Below are positions 20,151 to 50,212 of a DNA stretch of 64,000 nt, in pieces. Origin of the DNA: Centroscyllium fabricii (lineage: Eukaryota); NCBI GenBank assembly GCA_051313645.2, contig JBNRSN020000006.1, positions 294,562,001 to 294,626,000 on the forward strand. Direction: 5' to 3'. The stretch's first letter is position 1. The number at the start of each line of letters is the position of its first letter. The position numbers were made by a program, and so were the translations under genes. Under the pieces are notes generated by a model that worked only from the letters and a program-made list of their open reading frames with translations, did not search any database and was not told where the DNA came from.

Positions 20151-23035
20151 ACATAGAAACATAGGAGATAGGAGCAGGAGTCGGCCATTCGGCCCCTTGA
20201 GCCTGCTCTGCCATTCAATGAGATCATGGCTGATCATCCAAACTCAGTACCCTGTCCCTGCCTTCTCCCCATATCCCTTGATACCTTTAGCCTTAAGAAA
20301 TACATCCAGCTCCTTCTTGAATATATTCAATGAACTAGCCTCCACCGCCCTCTGTGGCAGAGAATTCCACAGGTTCACCACTCTCTGGGTGAAGAAATTC
20401 CTCCTCATCTCTGTCCTAAATGAGTTACCACTTATGCTTAGACTATGACCCCTGGTTCTGGACTCTCCGATCATCGGGAACATTCTTCCTGCATCAAGTT
20501 TGTCCAGACCAGTTAGAATTTTATACGTTTCGATGAGATCCCCTCTCAATCTTCTAAACTCGAGAGAGTACAAACCCAGTCTACCCAGTCTCTCCTCATA
20601 CGCCATTCCTGCCATCCCAGCTATCAGCCTGGTGAATCTTCTCTGCACTCCCTCCATGGCAAGAATGTCCTTCCTTAGATAAGGAGACCAAAATTACACA
20701 CAGTACTCAAGGTGTGGTCTCACCAAGGCCCTGTACAACTGCAGCACAACATCCTTGTTCCTGTACTTGAACCCTTTCGCTATGAAAGCCCAACATACCA
20801 TTTGCCTTCTTAACCGCCTGCTGCACCTGCATGCTTACCTTCAGTGACTGGTGCACAAGGACACCCAGGTCTCGTTGTACTTCCCCTTCTCCCAATCTAT
20901 TGCCAGTCAGATAATAGTCGGCATTTCTGTTTTTGCCCCCAAAGTGGATAACCTCGCATTTGTCCACATTATACTGCATCTGCCACATCTCAGCCCACTC
21001 GCCCAACCTGTCCAAATCATCCTGGAGCTTCCTGGTATCTTCCTCGCAGCACACACGCCCTTTGTGTCATCTGCAAACTTGGAGACATTACATTTAGTTC
21101 CCTTTTCTAAATCATTAATGTATATTGTGAATAGCTGGGGTCCCAGGACCGATCCCTGCGGTACCCCACTAGTCACTTGCTGCCACTCGGAAAAAGACCC
21201 ATTTACTCCTACTCTCTGCTTTCTGTCCGCCAACCAGTTCTCAATCCAAGTCAATACCTTGCCCCCAATCCCATGTGCCCTAACTTTACATGCTAATGTC
21301 TTGTGCGGGACCTTGTCGAACGCCTTCTGAAAGTCTAAGTACACCACATCTACTGGTTCTCCCTGATCAATTTTCCCATTTACATCCTCATAAAAGCTCT
21401 TACAGTCAGTTTTTATATTCCCTGCAAGCTTACTTTCATATTCTATTTTCCCCTTCTTTGTCCTCCTTTGTTGAATCCTAAACTGTTCCCAATCCTCAGG
21501 GTTACTGCTTTTTTTGGCCAGTTTATATGCCCTTTGTTTGATCTTATGCTATCCCTAATTTCTCTCGTCAGCCACGGTTGTGTTACCCTTTTTGTTTTAT
21601 TCTTGTGCCACACTGGGATGAACAACATCTGTAGTTCATCCATGCAGCCTTTGAATATTTGCCATTGCCTATTTACTGTCAACCCTTTGAGTGACATTCC
21701 CCAGTCAATCCTACCTAATTCGCACCTCATACCATCATAGTTTCCCTTATTTAGATTCAAGACCCTAGTCTCTGATTCCACTACCTCACTCTCCATCCTA
21801 ATGAGGAATTCTATCATGTTATGATCACTCAGACCCAAGGGGCCCCGTACCACAAGATCGGTAATTACTCCTTTCTCGTTACATAATACCCAGTCTAGGA
21901 TGGCCTGGTCTCTGGTTGGTTCCTCGACATATTGTTCCAAAAAACCGTCCCGTAGACATTCTAGGAATTCCTCCTCAACAGTATTTTTTACTAATTTGGT
22001 TAGCCCAGTCGATATGTAAATTAAAGTCCCCCATGATGACTGCTGTGCCCTTACTGCAAGCTTCTCTAATTTCCTTTTTAATGCCATTCCCAACCTCCAT
22101 ATTACTGTTTGGAGGTCTGTATACCACTCCCACTGATGTTTTCTGACCCTTGTTAGTTCTCAGTTCTACCCATACAGACTCCGCATCATCAGAGTTAATA
22201 TCCTTCCTTTCAATTGTGTTGATCCCCTCCTTAACCAGCAATGCTACCCCACCACCCTTTCTTTTTTGTCTATCTTTCCTAAATATTGAGTACCCCTGGA
22301 TGTTGAGTTCCCAGTCATGGCCACCCTGGAGCCATGTTTCTGTAATCCCAATCAAATCATAAAACATTGAAACATAGAAGATAGGAGCAGGAGTAGGCCA
22401 TTCGGCCCTTCGAGCCTGCTCCGCCATTCAACGAGACCATGGCTGATCACCCAAACCCAGAACCCCGTCCCCGCATCCATCTCGAGCCTGCACCGACACA
22501 CATCCCACCCTATCCCCGCAACCCCACACACTTAATCCCACTAACACTAAGGGTCAATTTATCCTGGCCAGTCAACCTAACCCGCACATCTTTGGACTGT
22601 GGGAGGAAACCGGAGCACCCGGAGGAAACCCACGCAGACACGGGGAGAATGTGCAAACTCCACACAGATAGTACCCGAGGCTGGATTTGAACCCGGGTCT
22701 CTAGTGCTGTGAGGCAACAATGCTAACCACTATGCCACCGTGCCGCCCCTCTATTTGTGCCGCTAATTCATCTACCTTGTTCCGAATGCTCCTTGCATTA
22801 AGACACAATGCCTTCAGGCTTATTTTTTTTAATGCTCTCAGCTCTATATGTATTACTCTTACCTGTGGCCATGTTTGAAATAAACTGCTGTGTTCTTTGC
22901 CTTATACTTTTCTTTATCTCCTTCTTGCCTTTTACTTTTATTGTTGATCCCCTTTCCTCTGTCCCCCTGTTCCCAACCCCCTGCCATTTTAGTTTAAATC
23001 CTCCCCCACAGCACTAGCAAACACTCCCCCCGGGA
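20151..23035 (-). mobile_element. CR1, degraded, ORF1 end through 3' tail with an internal deletion near 21395
   Basis: [41 protein letters not shown] and KFADDT motifs. Confidence 0.9.
22360..22748 (-). mobile_element. HE1-like V-SINE inside a CR1 EN domain
   Basis: Full-length copy. Confidence 0.9.
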
Positions 23036-23187: not shown

Positions 23188-23475
23188 ATCCCGTGTTGTT
23201 GCTCGCGATAAACCAGAGCAAACTGGGAACATTCTACCTGGTAATGCACAATATGTTATTCTGCTGCAGAGGTGAAGCTGTGTCTCTTGAAGCCCAGCTG
23301 GTAATTAAAGGCCATGGACTGAAAATTCAGCAGAAAATAAATAGTTTTGTAAAAACGTTATTTTGCATCTATAACAAAGTTTAACGCTTTGAAGTAGGAT
23401 ATCTGAAATGTGATGTATTAAATATAGACTGAAGAGAGGTTAGGAATAATAGACATGAATAGACATTAATCAGTA

Positions 23476-24339
23476 CAGGTTGAGCACCGTTAATCCGGCA
23501 CCCTCGGGACCAGGCTGGTGCCGGACCACTGAAAATTCCAAACCACTGAAGGTTCGGAGGGAGCGCGCGGGTAGAACACTCCCCGGGACCCGGAGCGCGC
23601 GGGTAGAACACTCCCCGGGCCCGGAGCGCGCGGGTAGAACACTCCCCGGGGCCCGGAGCGTGCGGGTAGAACACTCCCCGGGGCCCGGAGCGCGTGGGTA
23701 GAACACTCCCCGGGGCCCGGAGCGCGCGGGTAGAACACTCCCCGGGGCCCGGAGCGCGCGGGTAGAACACTCCCCGGGGCCCGGAGCGCGTGGGTAGAAC
23801 ACTCCCCGGGGCCCGGAGTGCACAGGTAGAACACTCCCCGGGGCCCGGGTAGAACACTCACCGGGGCCCAGAGCGCGTGGGTAGAACACTCCCCGGGGCC
23901 CGGAGCGCACGGGTAGAACATTCCCCAGGGCCCGGAGCGCGCGGGTAGAACACTCCCCGGGCCAGGAGCGCGCGGGTAGAACACTCACCGGGCCCGAAGC
24001 GCGCGGGTAGAACACTCCACGGGGCCCGGAGCGCGCGGGTAGAACACTCACCGGTGCCCAGGGCGCGCGGGTAGAACACTCCCCGGGGCCCAGAGCGCGT
24101 GGGTAGAAAACTCCCCGGGGCCCGGAGTGCGCGGGTAGAACACTCCCCGGGAGGGAGCCGGGGATAGAACACTTACAAAACCGAAATAAACAGAAACCCA
24201 AACGCCCGACGCCTTCGGCGCTCGCTCACCCTTTGCGGGAAACGGTGGCGCTGCTGAGCGGCTGCTCCGCAAAATGAAGAGCGCCGGTTTCCAATCATGC
24301 CGGACCACTGAAGGTGCCGGATTACCGGGGCTCAACCTG
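23476..24339 (-). mobile_element. Tigger MITE related to 57089-61647
   Basis: TIR CAGGTTGAGCACCGTTAATCCGGCA, TA TSD, shared subterminal sequence. Confidence 0.9.
23560..24170. repeat. 32-bp CpG-rich minisatellite, about 19 units
   Basis: Unit GGAGCGCGCGGGTAGAACACTCCCCGGGGCCC. Confidence 0.95.
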
Positions 24340-26372: not shown

Positions 26373-27163
26373 TATATTTATGGCCACTGGTTCAGGTCTC
26401 GCCTGCAAGTGGAATTAATTTCTCTACGTCTACCCTATCGAACCCCTTTCATAATTTTGAAGACCTCAATCAGGTCACCGCTCAGCCTTCTCTTTTCTAG
26501 AGAAAAGAGTCCCGGCCTGTTCAATCTTTCCTGATTGGTAGAAACTCTCAGTTCTGGTATCATCTGAGTAAATATTTTTTTGGGTGTAGTACCCACACTA
26601 ACAGCCTAGTTGGGGTCAGCTAGCTGTACAAATCGAGAACGAAGCCTATGACTTTTCCAAAACAGTATAACTTCCTCAGGGAAGCAGAGCCAGACATGGA
26701 AGCAGCCATGTTCTCCTTCGTACAACAAGGAGTCCTGAGACCAATAGCCACCCGCGTAAACTCTCCGCTGTGGCCGATTAGAAAGCCGGACAACTGGAGG
26801 GCCACAATGGACTATCGGGTGTTAAATAGTAACATCCCAGCCTGTGCACCCACAGTAGCAGCAGTTGCCGACCTGATAGGTCGGCACGGTGGCATAGTGG
26901 TTAGCACTGTTGCTGCACAGCACTGGAGACCCGGGTTCAAATCCAGCCTCGGGTGACTATCTGTGTGGAGTTTGCACATTCTCCCCGTGTCTGCGTGGGT
27001 TTCCTCCGGGTGCTCCGATTTCCTCCCACAGTCCAAAGATGTGCGGGTTAGGTTGATTGGCCATGATAAATTGACCCTTAGTGTTAGGGGGATTGAATAT
27101 GTGGGGTTACGGGGATAGGGTGGGATAGGCACAAAGCAACCAGGGGGGACGGTACATACACCC

Positions 27164-27871
27164 GTGCAGAAGGGCAGGCGGGAGTCGGCGAAAGGGAAGG
27201 GGGAGGATGGGTCGAGGCCCTCAGGGGACATTCTCCTCGGCAACAAGTATGCAGCCCTGAATAATGAAGGGGGGGAAGAACTAACAGGGGGAGACCGAGA
27301 GGATGAGAACTCGGATACCAGACCAGAAGAGGTGGTGCAAAAAGGAGGAGGGGGAAGGCTGAGAGCAATAGTTATGGGCGACTCAATGGTGAGAAGGATG
27401 GAGAGGAGGTTTTGCGGGAGCAAAAGGGACTCGAGGATGGTCTGTTGCTTCCCAGGTGCCAAGGTCCAAGACATCTCGGACCGTGTTTACAGCACTCTAA
27501 AAGGGGAGAGCAAACAAGTGCAGGTCATGGTACACATAGGTACGAACGACATAGGGAGGAAAAAAGAGGAAGACATTAAGCGGGAATTTAAGGAACTCGG
27601 AAGGAAACTGAGAGACAAAACGAATAATGCCACGATTTCTGGGATCCTACCAGTGCCACGGGATACGGTGTGGAAAAACGAAAACAGAAAGCGAATAAAC
27701 GCGTGGCTACAAGATTGGTGCGGAAGGGAGCGCATGAGTTTCGTGGACAATTGGGGATTGTTCTGGGGAAGGTGGGATCTGTATGATGAGGACGGCTTGC
27801 ACCTGAACCGAAGGGGCATCAGCATTCTGGGAGGGAAACTCGCTTCGGCCATAAAGGGGGATTTAAACTAA
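27164..27871 (+). CDS. CR1 ORF1 C-terminal SGNH/GDSL esterase-like domain (partial)
   Basis: [18 protein letters not shown] and DGLHLN blocks. Confidence 0.9.
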
Positions 27872-30744
27872 TTGGCCAGGGGGATGGGGAAACGGGCAGG
27901 GAAACAGAGGGGAGACCGGGGAACAACGAGGAAAAGGGGGGAGAACCAAGGACACAGGGAAGGGAAAGGGGTCTGAAATGCACCTACTTCAATGCAAGAA
28001 GTATAAGGAACAAGGCAGGGGAGTTAGGGGCATGGATGGCGGCATGGGACTTCGATGTGGTGGCCATTACAGAGACATGGCTGGAGCAGGGACAGGACTG
28101 GATGCTTGGGGTCCCGGGATACAGAAGCTTCTGGAGGAGCAGGGAGGGAGGAAAGCGCGGGGGGGGAGTAGCACTGCTGGTCAAGGACAACGTGACGGCT
28201 ACAGAAAAAAACTTTGAGGGGGGCACACGAACGGAGGTAGTATGGGCGGAGCTTAGAAATAGGAAGGGGGCGGTAACGTTAGTGGGAGTCTTTTATAGAC
28301 CACCAAATAGTAACAGGGAGGTGGAGGAGGAAATTGCGCGACAAATAAAGGAAAGATGTCGGGGACAGAGGGTAGTTATAATGGGAGATTTCAATTTCCC
28401 TAATATAGACTGGAATCTAGGTAGGTCAAAGAGTGCAGAGGGAGAGATTTTCTTACAATGCGTACAGGAGGGTTTCCTGACACAATACATGGAGGAACCA
28501 ACAAGGGTGGGGGGGGGGGCAACGTTGGACCTGGTTCTGGGAAATGAACCAGGCCAAGTGGTAGAACTGGGGGTAAGGGAGCACTTTGGGGACAGTGACC
28601 ACAACTCGGTGACGTTCACAATAGTAATGGAGAAGGATAGGAGCATGAGGCAGGGTAAGGTATACAGCTGGGGGAGGGGAAATTACGACAGGGTTAGGCA
28701 CAATTTAGCTAACACCAATTGGGAACGGGAACTTGCTGGGAGAGGAACGGAAGAAAAATGGAGAGTGTTCAGGGAGCAAATTATGAAAGCCCTGGATAAG
28801 CATGTCCCGAGTAGGATGGGAAGCAAGGGTAAGAAGAGAGAACCATGGATCACGAAAGAGGTAGAACAATTAGTAAAAAAGAAGAAGGAAGCATATGATA
28901 GAATGAGAAAACAGAGTACAGAAGGGGCGGGAAGGGAGTACAAAGAAGCAAGGAAAAATCTGAAGAATGGGCTAAGGAAGGCAAAGGGAGGGCATGAGAA
29001 GGCATTAGCGGGAAGGATAAAGGAGAACCCTAAGGCTTTCTATGCTTACGTAAGAAATAAAAGGATGACTAGGGTAAGAGTAGGGCCGATCAAAGACAGC
29101 AAGGGAGAAATGTGCACGGAGCCAGAGGAAATTGGGGAAGCACTAAATGAATATTTTGCGTCCGTGTTCACAAGGGAGAGGGAACTAAAAGTAGAGGGGG
29201 AGTTCAAGATACAAGGGGAAAGGATGGGGGAAGTAAATATTCAGAGGGGGGAGGTATTGGATATTTTGGAGAAACTGAAGGTAGACAAATCTCCTGGGCC
29301 GGACGGGATATATCCAAGGATTCTCTGGGAGGCGAGGAACGAAATCGCAGAGCCACTGACCTCTATCTTTAGATCATCGCTATCCTCGGGGATAGTCCCT
29401 AAGGACTGGAGAGAGGCGAATGTGGCTCCCATATTTAAAAAGGGGAGCAGGGACGTGCCAGGGAACTACAGACCAGTCAGCCTCACCTCAGTGGTCGGAA
29501 AGGTGATGGAAAGGGTCCTGAGGGACAGGATCTACGACCATCTAGAAAGGGGCGAATTAATCAGAAGCAGTCAGCACGGATTCGTTAAAGGCAAATCGTG
29601 CCTGACCAACCTGATAGAATTCTTTGAAGAGGTGACCAAGAGTGTGGACGAGGGAAAGGCGGTTGATGTCATATATATGGACTTCAGCAAGGCGTTCGAC
29701 AAGGTCCCGCACGGTCGGCTCATGAAGAAAGTAAGGAGCTGCGGGGTAAGCAACAAAGTGGTGGGATGGATTGAGAACTGGCTGGCTCAGAGGAAGCAGA
29801 GGGTAGTGGTAGAGGGCCAATACTCGGGTTGGAGACCGGTCACCAGTGGGGTACCACAGGGGTCGGTGTTGGGGCCACTACTGTTTGTAATCTTCATCAA
29901 TGACTTGGAGGAGGGGACTGAGGGGTGGGTCAGCAAATTTGCGGATGACACATAGATTGGGGGAGAAGTGGATGAGGAGGAAGGAAGCAGAAAGATTCAG
30001 AGGGATATAGACAGGATACAGAGCTGGGCTGAAGAATGGCAAATGGAGTTCAACACGGGAAAATGCGAGGTGATGCACTTCGGTAGGGCAAATAGGAAGA
30101 GGGAATATAGGGTCAACGGCAGGGTCCTGAGTGAAGCAGAGGAGCAAAGGGATCTGGGAGTATATGTACACAGATCACTGAAGGCTGCCACCCAGGTGGA
30201 CAAGGCAGTAAAAAAGGCCTATGGTGTATTGGCCTTCATCAACAGGGGAATAGAGTTTAAGAACCGGGAGGTCATGCTGCAGCTGTACAGGTCACTGGTG
30301 AGACCACACTTGGAGTACTGTGTGCAGTTCTGGGCACCGTACTACAGGAGGGATGTGGAGGCGCTGGAGAGAGTGCAGAGGAGATTCACCAGGATGCTGC
30401 CGGGAATGGGGGGAAAGTCATACGAGGAACGGTTAAGGGAACTGGGACTCTTCTCCCTGGAACGGAGAAGGAAGAGGGGGGACTTGATAGAGATGTTTAA
30501 AATGATGAAGGGGATCGATAGAGTAAACGTGCAAAGACTGTTTCCCCGGGCGGGAAGAACGACAACAAGAGGACACGAGCACAAGATTCAAGGAGGAAGA
30601 TTCAGAAGGGATGGCAGGGGCAAGTTCTTTACACAGAGAGTGGTCGGGGAATGGAATAGGCTACCATCTGAAATAGTGGAGGCGGACAGTCTGGGTGCTT
30701 TTAAAAGGATGATAGACAGGTACATGGAGGGGAAGGAACAGTAG
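27862..30744 (+). pseudogene. CR1 ORF2 (AP endonuclease-RT) with one premature stop at 29953-29955
   Basis: One continuous frame: YFNARS, TETW, GDFN, SDH, KFADDT*IGG; ORFs 28036-29955 and 29968-30744 are in the same frame. Confidence 0.92.
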
Positions 30745-31739
30745 GGGGGACAGGAAAAATCAGAGACGGACTAAAGGCGGCACTACATTGAGGGCCCAAG
30801 GGCCTGTACAGTGCTGTATGTTCTATGTTCTATGTTCTATGTGTCGGTGCAGGTTCGATAGGGATCGAGGGATATGGGGACAAGGCAGGGACAGGGTACT
30901 GGGTTTGGATGATCAGCCATGATCTCATTGAATGGCGGAGCAGGCTCGAAGGGCCGAATGGCCGACTCCTGCTCCTATCTTCTATGTTTCTATGTTATTC
31001 CAGCATCCGCGACCACTTTCACGGTGCTGGATATTTCCAACGGGTTTTGGTCATTACCTTTCTAATAGTACCGAGTGTATTTCCCAACAAAGCCACTAAG
31101 GGAAGTCAACATTTCTTTACCCAATTAAACACATTCGAGTTTTAGTTAAAGAATTAATTTCAAAAGAGAAAATTCTTCACAACGCAGGGACAAATTCATA
31201 AACCCGTATGACGGGGCGAAAAAAAAACCAGACATTGAGATTTTGATCATTGCATTCTTTATTCAGAATCCTGTGGAAGACCAGATTTTTCTGCAACGTG
31301 TAGTGAAAAGTTCTAGCCAGTTGTTTCGAGCGAATAAATAGACTGTGGTTCTGAATTAAAGTTAGCAGCAAAGATCTATGGTATTTGCAATAACACACCT
31401 TTCAGGCAGTCCATGCGATTTAAAGGTCAGAATTTGACATGCAGATGTCCATTTATTTGCACAGTCACTAATATATCAAACCGCACAACAAAAACTACAC
31501 CGAATATTGGTTCAGAATTTACTGTTTTTAGCGGGCAGCACTAAACCCATCCCCTGTTTGACAGAGAGAGACTGTGCTTTTGACTTTCTTGTAGCAAACA
31601 AGAATAGGTTATTTCCTTTCTATATTAAAGCACAATTCTGCACAGATTTACATGTTAATGCAGTTAGGACATTTTTACAGTGCATTTACAGCAGCATACG
31701 TTGATAGAAATGAGTATGCTCTACACTCGAGGGCCAGGG

Positions 31740-46044: not shown

Positions 46045-46788
46045 AGGTGGGAAACCCATTCTGAGGCAGAAGGGCGAACAGCCAGAGGTCATGGTCCATA
46101 TCGGTACCAACGACATAGGTAGAAAGAGGGATGAGGTCCTGCAGGCGGATTTCAGGGAGCGAGGAAAGAGATTAAAAAGCAGGACCTCCAAAGGTAGTAA
46201 TCTCTGGATTACCCTTGATGCCACCCGCTAGTGAGTATAGAAATAGGAGGATGTGGTAAACCACTGTATATAGTGTAACTGTAACGTAACGCCTCCTTGC
46301 CAGGGAGGACTCACCTGGGAGGACTCCGCTCCTCGGCTTCCTCCCCAGGCTCCGCCCACTGGGTATAAAAGTGCCTGCACACCTGAGTGCTCTCGCTTCG
46401 GCTTGGAAGATCGTCGGACCTGTGTCCACTTCTAGGTGAATAAAAGCCTCGATTACATCTAACCATCGACTGGAGTCATTGATTGTGCATCAGAGGATAG
46501 CGCAGATGAATGCGTGGCTGGGGAGTTGGTGCAGGTGGGGCGGCTTCAGATTACTGGGGCATTGGGACTGGTTCTGGGGGAGGTGGGACCTGTACACGCC
46601 AGACGGGTTACACCTCAACAGGGCCGGAACCAATATCCTCGCGGGGAGGTGTGATAGTGCTGTTGGGGAGGGTTTAAACTAATTTGGCAGGGGGATGAGC
46701 ACCAGGATGTAACATTAGAAAGGGAAAATAAAGTGCTCAAAGTATTGGGAGAGACAGAGAACTCTAAAGTAAGAAATAGTAAGGTATT
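46045..46788 (+). mobile_element. CR1 ORF1 fragment and ORF1/ORF2 junction, degraded
   Basis: HIGTND and DGLHLN..GEGLN* motifs; solo LTR inserted. Confidence 0.85.
46252..46492 (+). mobile_element. Solo LTR
   Basis: TGTGGTAA...ATCA, TATAAAA, AATAAA, TSD GAGGA; same family as 60792-61063. Confidence 0.92.
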
Positions 46789-46921: not shown

Positions 46922-48376
46922 TCAATGTATTGAGTTGTTCATACTGTGTTCGCTGGGTGTACCTCTGCTCATGTTACTCAGACTGGCCATCAGGGACTTC
47001 ATTCTGTCCGCATAGTAGTCGCGAAGGTTAAGCAGAGGCAATTCAGCCAGGCCCTCATCAAACTCACAGTTCCTCATGGCGTTCTCCAGATTTTTCTGCC
47101 GCCGGTAAAAGTGTGAGAATTTGTTGAAGATGAGGGTAATGGGAAGCACGACTACCAGGATCCCAGCCAGAATGCAGGCAGAGGCCGTTAGTTTACCTCC
47201 GATACTGATGGGGACCACGTCTCCGTAGCCCACGGTGGTCATGCTAACGGTGGCCCACCACCAGCACGAGGGAATAGTGGCCAGGCCAGAGTTGTCTTCT
47301 TTCTCGATGGTGTAGACCACTACCGAGAAGACGGACACTCCGACTGAGAGGTAGAGTAAGAGCAGCCCCACTTCCCTGTAGCTGTGCTTCAAGGTGGCTC
47401 CCAGCGACCTCAAGCCTGTGGAGTGGCGGGCCAGCTTGAGGATGCGGAAGATTCTCATGAGCCTGAGCACCTGCACCACTCGGCCGAGATTGACCAAGGT
47501 GGGACTGCTGTCGACGGCCAGGTTCACCAGCAGGGTCAAGTAAAAAGGCAAAATGGACATCAGGTCGATGAGGTTCAAAGGATGTCTGAAGAAGTGCTGC
47601 AGACTCGGGGACACAAAAAATCTGGCCAGGAGCTCAAAGGTAAACCAGGCGATGCAGATGTGTTCAACGATCTCAAACCGGGGGTCGTCCCTGGTTTTGC
47701 CCTGGCCATCCACCAGCTGGAATTCGGCCATGCTGTTCAAACACATGGTGGTTATAGACCCTAAAACCATCATTATAGACAGGGCACTGTATAACCTGCT
47801 TGCAATGTTGTAACCGGGGTTTTCAGACATCAACCAAAGACGCCTTCGGAGGTTACCAAAGACCTGGCTGTCGTACTTTGAGGCGTCCTTGTAGAAGGTT
47901 AAGACCTCGTCGAACGAAGATGTGTTGCTACCTTGGTCGCTGGCAGTCTCCTCGCACTCGTCCTGGTTGGCTCCCGTTCCCCTCGCGTGGTAACCGGGAC
48001 CGGAGCAGGACGGGTCGATGAAGAACTGGCTGATGCCCCAGTACTCGATCTCCTGGCTGAAAGAGAAGATGCACAGCTTGTCGGCGGCCTGGAGCTTGCC
48101 GGTGTGGTAGAAATTGAGGATGTAAGGGAACAGGGCGGGGTTCCGGTCGAAGTAAAACTCCTTCTCGCTGTCTTCATAGTCGTCGCAGAGTTGGAGGATG
48201 GACTCGGTGGAGTGGCATTTCAGCAGCTGGCCCAGCCTGGTTTCTGGAAACCGCGACAGGGTCTGGTACCTCAGCTTTCTCTTCAAGCCCCCGACATTGA
48301 CGCTGATCTCGCCATCGCCCATCACCTCCTCCTCCTCCTCGTCAGCCATCCAAGCATTTGGAACCGGACCAGTCAT
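46922..48376 (-). CDS. KCNS2: Voltage-gated K+ channel modifier subunit Kv9.2, single coding exon, 484 aa
   Basis: T1/BTB domain (INVGG-like, EFYFDRNP), S4 VLRLMRIFRILKLARHSTGL, pore WWWATVSMTTVGYGD, S6 GILVVVLPITLIFNKF; N-terminal MTG and C-terminal NLRDYYA..KSLMASL match KCNS2 as I recall it. Confidence 0.93.
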   Translation of the reverse strand: MTGPVPNAWMADEEEEEVMGDGEISVNVGGLKRKLRYQTLSRFPETRLGQLLKCHSTESILQLCDDYEDSEKEFYFDRNPALFPYILNFYHTGKLQAADKLCIFSFSQEIEYWGISQFFIDPSCSGPGYHARGTGANQDECEETASDQGSNTSSFDEVLTFYKDASKYDSQVFGNLRRRLWLMSENPGYNIASRLYSALSIMMVLGSITTMCLNSMAEFQLVDGQGKTRDDPRFEIVEHICIAWFTFELLARFFVSPSLQHFFRHPLNLIDLMSILPFYLTLLVNLAVDSSPTLVNLGRVVQVLRLMRIFRILKLARHSTGLRSLGATLKHSYREVGLLLLYLSVGVSVFSVVVYTIEKEDNSGLATIPSCWWWATVSMTTVGYGDVVPISIGGKLTASACILAGILVVVLPITLIFNKFSHFYRRQKNLENAMRNCEFDEGLAELPLLNLRDYYADRMKSLMASLSNMSRGTPSEHSMNNSIH

Positions 48377-48377
48377 C

Positions 48378-48432
48378 CTGGACGGGGAGAGAGAGAAAGA
48401 GAGAGAGAGGCGGCCGCGTCCCTGAAACAGAT
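48378..48432 (-). promoter_or_regulatory. Candidate splice acceptor(s) for the KCNS2 coding exon
   Basis: (CT)n tract-CCCCGTCCAG|GATG (AG at 48378-79) and TCTGTTTCAG (AG at 48422-23). Confidence 0.55.
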
Positions 48433-48629
48433 CGAGATTGAAGTCAAATATAATATGAGTAGGTCGGACACCTCACACCAGGGAATGGAAGGGGGGATGC
48501 TGTTGAGTACAGCCCGGGGGTGGCAGGGGTGTGGGGGGGTGAAGACAGTATAGCCCCGGGGTGGGGACAGTATGGGGGGGAATAGTTTGGCGGGGTGGGG
48601 GAAAGTTTGGAGGGTGGTGGTTGTGGTGG

Positions 48630-49870
48630 GGTCAGTTCGGTTCCTGTTCCCGGATCAGTTCGGTTCCCGGTCCTGGGTCAGTTCGGTTCCCGGTCCCGGG
48701 TCGGTTCTGTCCCTGGTCCTGGGTCGGTTCTGTTCCCGGTCCCGCGTCAGTTCGGTTCCTGTTCCCAGGTCATTCTGTTCCCGGTCCCGGGTCGGTTCAG
48801 TTTGTTTCTCGGTCCCGGGGCTGCGCGGGATTCAGTTTGTATCCCAGTCCCGGATCAGTTCGGTTCCCGTTCCTGGGTTGGTTCGGTTCCCGTTCCCGGG
48901 TCGTTCTGTTCCTGGTCTCGGGTCGGTTCGGTTTGTTTCTTGGTCCCGGGTCGGTTCGGTTCCCGGATCAGTTCCCGTTCCCGGATCAGTTCCCGTTCCC
49001 GGGTCGGTTCGGTTCCCGGGTCGGTTCGGTTCCCGGGTCAGTTCAGTTCCCGTTCCCGGGTCGGTTCAGTTCCCGGCCTCGGGTTGGTTCTGTTCCCGGT
49101 CCCGGGTTGGTTTGGTTTGTTTCTCGGTCCCGGGACTATGCGGGATTCAGTTTGTAACCCAGTCCCGGATCAGTTCGGTTCCCGAGTTGGTTCGGTTCCG
49201 GGTCCCGGGTCAATTTGGTTTGTTTCTCAGTCCCAGGGCTACCCGTGATTCAGTTTGTATCCCGGTCCCGGGTCGTTCTGTTCCCGGTCCCGGGTCCGTT
49301 CTGTTCCCGGTCCCAGGTCGGTTTGGTTCCAGGGCCCGGGTCAGTTCTGTTCCCGGTTCGGTTCCTGGTCCCGGGTCGTTCCGTTCCCGGTCCCGGGTCG
49401 TTCCGCTCCCGGGTCGGTTCGGTTCCCGCTCCCGGGTCGGTTCCGTTCCCATTCCCGGGTCGGTTCCGTTCCCGGGTCGTACCGTTCCCGATCTCGGGTC
49501 GTTCCGTTCCCGGTCCCGGGTCGTTCCGTTCCCGGGTCGGTTCGGTTCCCGTTCCTGGGTCGTTTTGTTCCCGGTCCTGGGTCGATTCAGTTCCCAGGTC
49601 AGTTTGGTTCCCATTCCCTGATCAGTTTGGTTCGTGGGTCGGTCTGGTCCCAGGTCGGTTTGGTTCGGTTCCCGGTCACGGTCAGTTCGGTTCCCGGTCC
49701 CAGTTGGTTCTGTTCCCAGCCTCGGGTCTGTTCGGTTCCCGTTCCCGGGTCGGTTCGGTCCCTGGTTCCGGATCTGTTTGGTTCGGATCCCGGTCCCGGG
49801 TCAGTTCGGTTCCTGATCCCGGGTCGGTTCTGTTCCCGTTACCGGGTCGGTACGGTTCCCAGATTCCGGT
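48630..49870. repeat. Degenerate GGTTCC/GGTCCC tandem repeat, CpG-rich and A-poor
   Basis: Reiterated GGTTCGGTTCCCGGTCCCG-like units. Confidence 0.9.
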
Positions 49871-50084
49871 TTATTCAGTTTCCAGGAAATGTCGAAACTT
49901 GGCGATAAACCAGAGCAAAACCTGCGGAAATCGCAGCTCGACTCCGGCAGGAACTCGATCTGAATTTTACAGCGAAATAGAAAAAAGAAAACTTGTAAAA
50001 ACTGAAAATAAAGAAGCAGCACCAGGAAATCCCAGAACTGAGCCCAGTCCCTGGCCAAACCAGGAGAATCTGCAGGTGATGCGG

Positions 50085-50212
50085 TTCCGGGATCCGGACC
50101 CGGTGATCTGGGATCGGGGACTCAGTGATCCGGACTTGGTGATCCGGGATCGGGGACTCGGTGATCCGGGATCGGGGACTCGGTGATCCGGGATCAGGCT
50201 CCGGGATCCGGG
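50085..50212. repeat. 22-bp minisatellite
   Basis: GGTGATCCGGGATCGGGGACTC repeats. Confidence 0.85.

Follow-up and report, generated by a model that had tools for sequence, protein, structure and literature searches.

How the second open reading frame (ORF2) of two-ORF LINEs is translated is described as unclear in the available text of PMC3708506. The model cases of such elements yield separate proteins. A CR1-type LINE in the 7.2 Gb genome of Centroscyllium fabricii raises the same question, with an ORF2 that lies in the -1 frame relative to ORF1 and has its first ATG inside the endonuclease domain. The element lies in a stretch of 64,000 nucleotides, called the window below.

Anatomy of the element

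The first frame carries an SGNH esterase domain (PF13472; PDB 4c1b) and the second an APE endonuclease followed by a reverse transcriptase (RT) (PF03372, PF14529, PF00078; L1 and TRAS1 endonuclease structures). Inspection of the 3' end showed a short tandem repeat, (TTCTATG)n at about 30820-30843, with neither poly-A nor LTR. Domain make-up and vertebrate homologues point to a CR1 element, and the nearest named ORF1 homologues come from sharks and rays. The features of the window are the following.

27130..27871, + strand: CR1-type LINE ORF1 remnant with SGNH/GDSL esterase domain (PF13472, E 2e-13; PDB 4c1b profile, E 4e-40); start boundary approximate
27862..27868, + strand: slippery heptamer T_TTA_AAC (TTTAAAC) in the ORF1 frame, from sequence and family conservation
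27869..27871, + strand: ORF1 stop TAA, directly 3' of the heptamer
27862..27987, + strand: -1-frame linker from heptamer to endonuclease (FKLIGQG...), 41 codons long and free of ATG and stop codons
27879..27883, + strand: G5 run on the 3' side of the heptamer, at a distance of 11 nt; may act as a stimulator, and a G-quadruplex could form in the window family
27988..28611, + strand: APE-type endonuclease domain of ORF2 (Pfam PF03372; endonuclease structures), with the first ATG, 28036, internal
29437..30744, + strand: RT and C-terminal part of ORF2, with in-frame TAG at 29953-29955
30745..30843, + strand: 3' UTR with terminal short (TTCTATG)n repeats
22992..22998, - strand: identical heptamer where ORF1 of a second CR1 family ends
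46673..46679, + strand: identical heptamer where ORF1 of a third CR1 family, an older one, ends

The ORF1 frame of the window copy (27119..27871) ends GAT TTA AAC TAA, and the ORF2 frame (27790..29955) is -1 relative to it. The original prediction, made from this stretch of DNA, had placed an in-frame TTTAAAC at 27862-27868 and an ORF2 frame open from 27790 with no ATG before 28036; both are confirmed here, and the same junction is seen in 30/30 near-identical genomic copies (99% identical). The PF03372 match begins at residue 67 of the ORF2 frame (about 27988). The first ATG of that frame falls within the endonuclease, 15 codons past the Asn of the YFNARS motif and aligned with about residue 31 of the human L1 endonuclease in a structure-based comparison, so that an AUG-initiated ORF2 protein would lack this motif, as had been proposed. 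The missing Asn is presumably catalytic.

The window copy is 5'-truncated, with the first ~100 ORF1 codons absent and a short repeat at the break; sister copies have an open ORF1 frame of 350 aa. Because of this loss and of the TAG inside the RT, the window copy cannot encode a full protein. Its family is young, and the first -1-frame Met comes after NARS in 28 of the 30 near-identical copies, the exceptions being L018 (private ATG) and L028 (private indel). A copy-specific mutation or an assembly error as the origin of the junction is excluded, given that the copies share it without exception and that three contig sets show no heptamer difference or indel.

A search of the 64-kb window with TTTAAACTA gave three matches (0.5 expected), and all three are CR1 ORF1 ends of different families. 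Elsewhere in these elements, in-frame X_XXY_YYZ heptamers occupy 23 of 5,781 other codon positions (0.4%).

Two further regions of the window (23381-24225 and 48543-50186) consist of long GC-rich tandem repeat arrays that give rise to spurious open frames on both strands. A 516-aa open frame at 46922-48472 (- strand) sits between repeats and presumably resembles a voltage-gated potassium channel modifier subunit (Kv/KCNS-like).

Conservation of the junction within the genome

The search for ORF1 ends used an HMM built without the final 11 codons. TTTAAAC followed by TAA or TAG is present in 197 of 235 ends so located, which comprise nine sets: four chosen by DNA likeness to the junction, four by protein queries (three of them ending Leu-Asn) and one unselected. 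Heptamer and stop were also present in 29/30 ends of a further set fetched with a query ending Gly-Asn, and 400 kb flanking the window contained only two ORF1 ends. Among the 197 heptamer ends the endonuclease motif lies in the -1 frame in 137 (126 stop-free), in frame 0 in 12 and in +1 in 19, and was not found in 29; the heptamer ends whose endonuclease frame is off -1 are old copies with private indels.

A closer inspection was made of 15 hand-picked representatives, 12 from the same genome (51-94% identical, mean 66%) and three metagenome loci, which were chosen for intact linkers and are mutually related. The Leu codon is TTA and the Asn codon AAC in 15/15. The base before TTA is G in a single representative and T in the other 14, where the codons it belongs to specify six amino acids. 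At each of five further conserved Leu columns 3-6 codons are in use, and TTA makes up 26 of 177 Leu codons in these sequences. The invariance of the Asn codon is by itself uninformative. The stop behind the heptamer is TAA in 11 and TAG in four. The third base is also invariant in two further columns, at -36 and -9, so relatedness contributes to the conservation.

The third base of ORF1 codon -9 is T in all 15 representatives, and in 7/14 it helps to form a stop codon that lies in the -1 frame five codons upstream of the heptamer; this T may be part of the shift signal.

Genome-wide pattern counts, made with one 3' anchor that covers several lineages and leaves the family of the window copy outside, gave 29,463 intact heptamer junctions. 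Single transitions silent in ORF1 (positions 1, 2 and 4) number 161, 40 and 144, and single missense transitions (positions 3, 5 and 6) number 155, 21 and 170; stop-loss variants number 109. The change AAC>AAT, which has no matched C>T control, occurs in 518 copies (1.8%). The counts track position in the run and not coding effect: A/T transitions that leave the ORF1 protein unchanged are found no more often than those that alter an amino acid, and a silent heptamer change has spread in none of the lineages covered. By contrast, TAA, TAG and several spacers are each typical of whole lineages. Taken with the codon columns, these counts show a site conserved beyond coding need. One of the checks proposed with the original prediction, conservation of heptamer and frame, was borne out, both being retained across diverged lineages.

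At C822:506.71-507.01 Mb one variant of the CR1 junction recurs in about 16 copies spaced roughly 11-60 kb apart, which suggests a tandem segmental array.

From the heptamer to the endonuclease the -1 frame is stop-free in 14/14 representatives, over linkers of 33-70 codons (shuffle P 0.001-0.38) that are alignable over just a few residues and whose other frames are mostly full of stops. Upstream of the heptamer the -1 frame is shut within 1-5 codons in 10/14. These limits of the open frame locate the point of entry into ORF2 at the heptamer. The junction combines an in-frame X_XXY_YYZ heptamer with a -1 downstream frame that is open from the site and has no conserved start of its own, the features of a -1 frameshift site.

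A subfamily with ORF1 and ORF2 fused at the heptamer

In a sister lineage one T is inserted within the heptamer, giving a single ORF1-ORF2 frame that reads Ala-Leu-Asn-Leu-Ile-Ser across the junction; its Leu-Asn-Leu is the peptide predicted from tandem slippage. Open frames of up to 1,319 aa are found in many copies of this lineage, and one natural fused copy has a frame of 1,314 aa that covers the esterase, endonuclease and RT domains. Exact junction matches genome-wide number 850 for the fused form vs 2,870 for the sister heptamer form. Out of 100 fetched stretches that were classed, 57 are fused, 37 have the heptamer form and 6 are other or unaligned. All 51 sufficiently covered fused copies fall in one clade (FastTree support 0.74) at the young end of a ladder, with a mean pairwise distance of 2.0% vs 7.3% in 20 unselected heptamer copies. 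Three 1-nt indels are recurrent, each in 2-4 fused copies.

Selection was assessed in 39 unselected fused copies, a variant being called shared when present in three or more. In ORF2, shared variants comprise 44 silent, 39 missense and 0 stops, vs 126, 281 and 14 among singletons (P 8e-5), and the shared variants unseen in the sister form stand at 25:22 silent:missense (P 0.003). ORF2 of the fused subfamily is under purifying selection. For the ORF1 part, purifying selection was not significant (shared private variants 4 silent:11 missense, P 1.0). This young, monophyletic subfamily of 850 copies is new and is the strongest indirect evidence for the frameshift reading.

Private in-frame ORF1-ORF2 fusions were also seen in single copies: L180, by a deletion, and L320 and L375, by an extra A in the heptamer. 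A database search for fusions among longer proteins gave three matches and no clean ORF1-ORF2 fusion.

Homologues beyond the genome

The Leu-Asn end is found in 43 of 60 ORF1 homologues and in 42 of 92 distant ones (those with a DGxH motif, of 150 representatives). It persists despite differing tail lengths, and the named proteins that have it include sharks, rays, a teleost, lizards and turtles. Other ends among the 92 are Gly-Asn in 10 (eight Gln-Gly-Asn) and Lys-Asn in three. These are the peptides that G_GGA_AAC and A_AAA_AAC would encode, candidate sites seen here through their proteins; DNA for the proteins ending Gln-Gly-Asn was not found in the C. fabricii genome or in viral contigs. 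The available sections of PMC5009743 place G_GGA_AAC, A_AAA_AAC and U_UUA_AAC among the shiftiest sites.

Of 80 metagenome loci, the 11 with a readable LINE-like junction were used and the remainder set aside; a search of genome contigs for related loci gave five, none of which entered the analysis, and no related loci were found in viral contigs. The ORF1 end reads T_TTA_AAC_TAG in L091 and G_TTA_AAC_TAG in L093, with the -1 linker open in both. The decayed L118 retains the heptamer, and the likewise decayed L095 is without an intact one. In a distant esterase LINE (L097:856-868) ORF1 ends G_GAT_TTT_CAC_TAA and ORF2 lies in the -1 frame, possibly a second type of heptamer, represented by this single locus.

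Six other distant esterase LINEs (L092, L094, L098, L099, L100 and L114), which we take to be L2-like, have ORF2 in the ORF1 frame behind a TGA, followed by C in five and by T in L098. Their linkers are 85-100 codons long, five of them open to the endonuclease motif and three without Met. These junctions are candidates for stop-codon readthrough.

Candidate 3' stimulators

In -1 frameshift sites a stimulatory structure is expected 5-9 nt downstream of the heptamer. Folding of the 15 representatives for local stem-loops found no stable conserved 3' structure, with z-scores from -0.6 to +1.4. A run of at least five G starts 8-12 nt after the heptamer in 15/15, vs a background of about 1%, and a three-tier G-quadruplex pattern occurs in one of the 15, that of the window copy's family. 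The adjacent stop and the 3' G-run may act as stimulators.

The TGGCAGGGGG.TGG motif that follows the ORF1 stop (window 27872-27890 and relatives) resembles a 3'-end stretch of amniote CR1 consensus rows in the available part of the PMC4316615 supplement, where all matches lay at 3' ends. The likeness may reflect either chance or shared function.

Probable frameshifting and its alternatives

These CR1-type LINEs probably express ORF2 by programmed -1 ribosomal frameshifting at U_UUA_AAC and the stop behind it. We infer both the slip and its efficiency: most ribosomes would stop and release an esterase protein ending Leu-Asn, and a minority would slip back one base at the heptamer and continue Leu-Ile-Gly-Gln-Gly. 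The latter would cross the flexible linker into endonuclease and RT, producing a Gag-Pol-like fusion of ~1,300 aa. A gag-pol-style fusion of esterase, endonuclease and RT had been suggested in the original prediction; the comparative tests and the subfamily that hard-codes this fusion at the heptamer lend it support at the level of sequence.

The main rival is that ribosomes terminate at the ORF1 stop and then reinitiate, using a linker AUG if there is one and otherwise starting AUG-independently, as described for SART1 and mammalian L1, with the heptamer kept for another reason such as efficient termination or restart. Met codons are present in the linkers of 9/14 representatives, and the failure to find a 3' stem-loop in the 15 representatives also speaks for this reading. 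Precedents are the UAAUG coupling of SART1 (available text of PMC3708506) and the ORF2 of L1, which is thought to start AUG-independently (available text of PMC5009743). Against it, the linker AUGs are scattered over codons 14-56 and missing in five of the 14, the frame upstream of them is stop-free back to the heptamer, and no overlap of stop and start of the SART1 type was seen: in all 14 the 13 codons nearest the heptamer are free of in-frame ATGs. The original prediction had named as evidence against itself an AUG ahead of the endonuclease motif and in frame with it, together with free synonymous variation in the Leu-Asn codons; the former was thus encountered, at no shared position, and the latter was absent. 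Reinitiation leaves the invariant X_XXY_YYZ form unexplained. Moreover, the fused subfamily amplified with its ORF2 under selection despite loss of the ORF1 stop, and since its source elements kept this selection, reinitiation at that stop cannot account for it. Four linker AUGs are retained in 55-57 of 57 fused copies, so internal initiation is possible in that subfamily, as in the lineages with linker AUGs. On balance we regard reinitiation as unlikely.

A constraint at the protein level, in which a C-terminal Leu-Asn of the ORF1 protein overlaps Phe-Lys-Leu of an ORF2 begun at a nearby upstream non-AUG codon, or by internal initiation, appears highly unlikely. The Leu-Asn end is indeed conserved in proteins, and double coding would freeze the bases. 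The -1-frame stops just upstream of the heptamer leave almost no space for such a start, however, alignment to 4c1b puts the end beyond the final helix of the esterase, and distant relatives end Gly-Asn or Lys-Asn. An effect on the RNA before translation, by a splice acceptor (CTAAT...CAG) or by polymerase slippage in TTT/AAA that yields an in-frame message, is scarcely credible: CTAAT followed by CAG/G occurs in several families and the fused subfamily shows that an insertion at the heptamer gives a viable frame, but the branch-like A is only about 8 nt from the AG, there is no pyrimidine tract, CAG is missing in family G, L091, L093 and L118, and runs of three are short for polymerase slippage.

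Relation to known systems

The frameshift reading has close parallels among viruses. The heptamer of IBV and other coronaviruses, U_UUA_AAC, is identical to that of CR1, in frame and with the downstream ORF in -1, and at G_GAU_UUU of PEMV a nearby stop matters, as the CR1 stop is also close, directly behind the site (both from the available part of PMC5009743, which also treats HeT-A). Unlike the viral sites, the CR1 junction shows a conserved G-run and, in local folding, no stem-loop, and its host is a non-LTR retrotransposon. Dictyostelium TRE5-A and TRE3-A, APE-type non-LTR elements like CR1, are said to depend on a -1 frameshift for their ORF2 (PMC5911963, available text); they differ in clade and kingdom and have no esterase ORF1.

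Canonical esterase-ORF1 CR1 LINEs (bioRxiv 10.64898/2026.01.13.699120; ZfL2-1 esterase PDB 4c1b, PMC3905857) share the esterase ORF1, the APE-RT ORF2 and the short 3' repeats; the available texts describe two ORFs or loss of ORF1, and no frameshift. The bioRxiv text, apart from its supplements and as far as available, contains no mention of frameshift, overlap, fused, single ORF or slippery. No report of frameshifting in CR1 was found in the available parts of the literature, including PMC2734521, PMC4255032, PMC6609765 and PMC11835228; the first papers on full-length chicken and turtle CR1 fall outside this scope and may hold an older remark. L1 and SART1, by reinitiation, and CR1-group elements with 2A recoding face the same problem of expressing ORF2 from one mRNA and make separate proteins (PMC5009743, PMC3708506, in the parts available), whereas the CR1 evidence presented here favours a fusion.

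Significance

The CR1 junction carries a genuine and conserved signal of the recoding type; its probable mechanism is a familiar one in a new setting. CR1 LINEs with an esterase ORF1 are the commonest repeat of sharks, reptiles and birds, and it is rather likely that throughout the jawed vertebrates they use a retrovirus-like Gag/Gag-Pol switch. This would be a conserved -1 frameshift driven by the stop and the G-run rather than by a pseudoknot. Distant relatives would use other heptamers (G_GGA_AAC, A_AAA_AAC, G_GAU_UUU), and a lineage that dropped the switch could still amplify, as one fused polyprotein. The fused subfamily of 850 copies serves as a natural experiment and renders the frameshift claim directly testable. 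If the claim is true, tens of thousands of genomic copies would bear the shift signal, possibly with an unusual stimulator, and annotations of CR1 ORF2 that begin at the first AUG would omit part of the endonuclease. The RT of a dominant vertebrate LINE clade would then be joined covalently to the ORF1 protein and produced in a fixed ratio.
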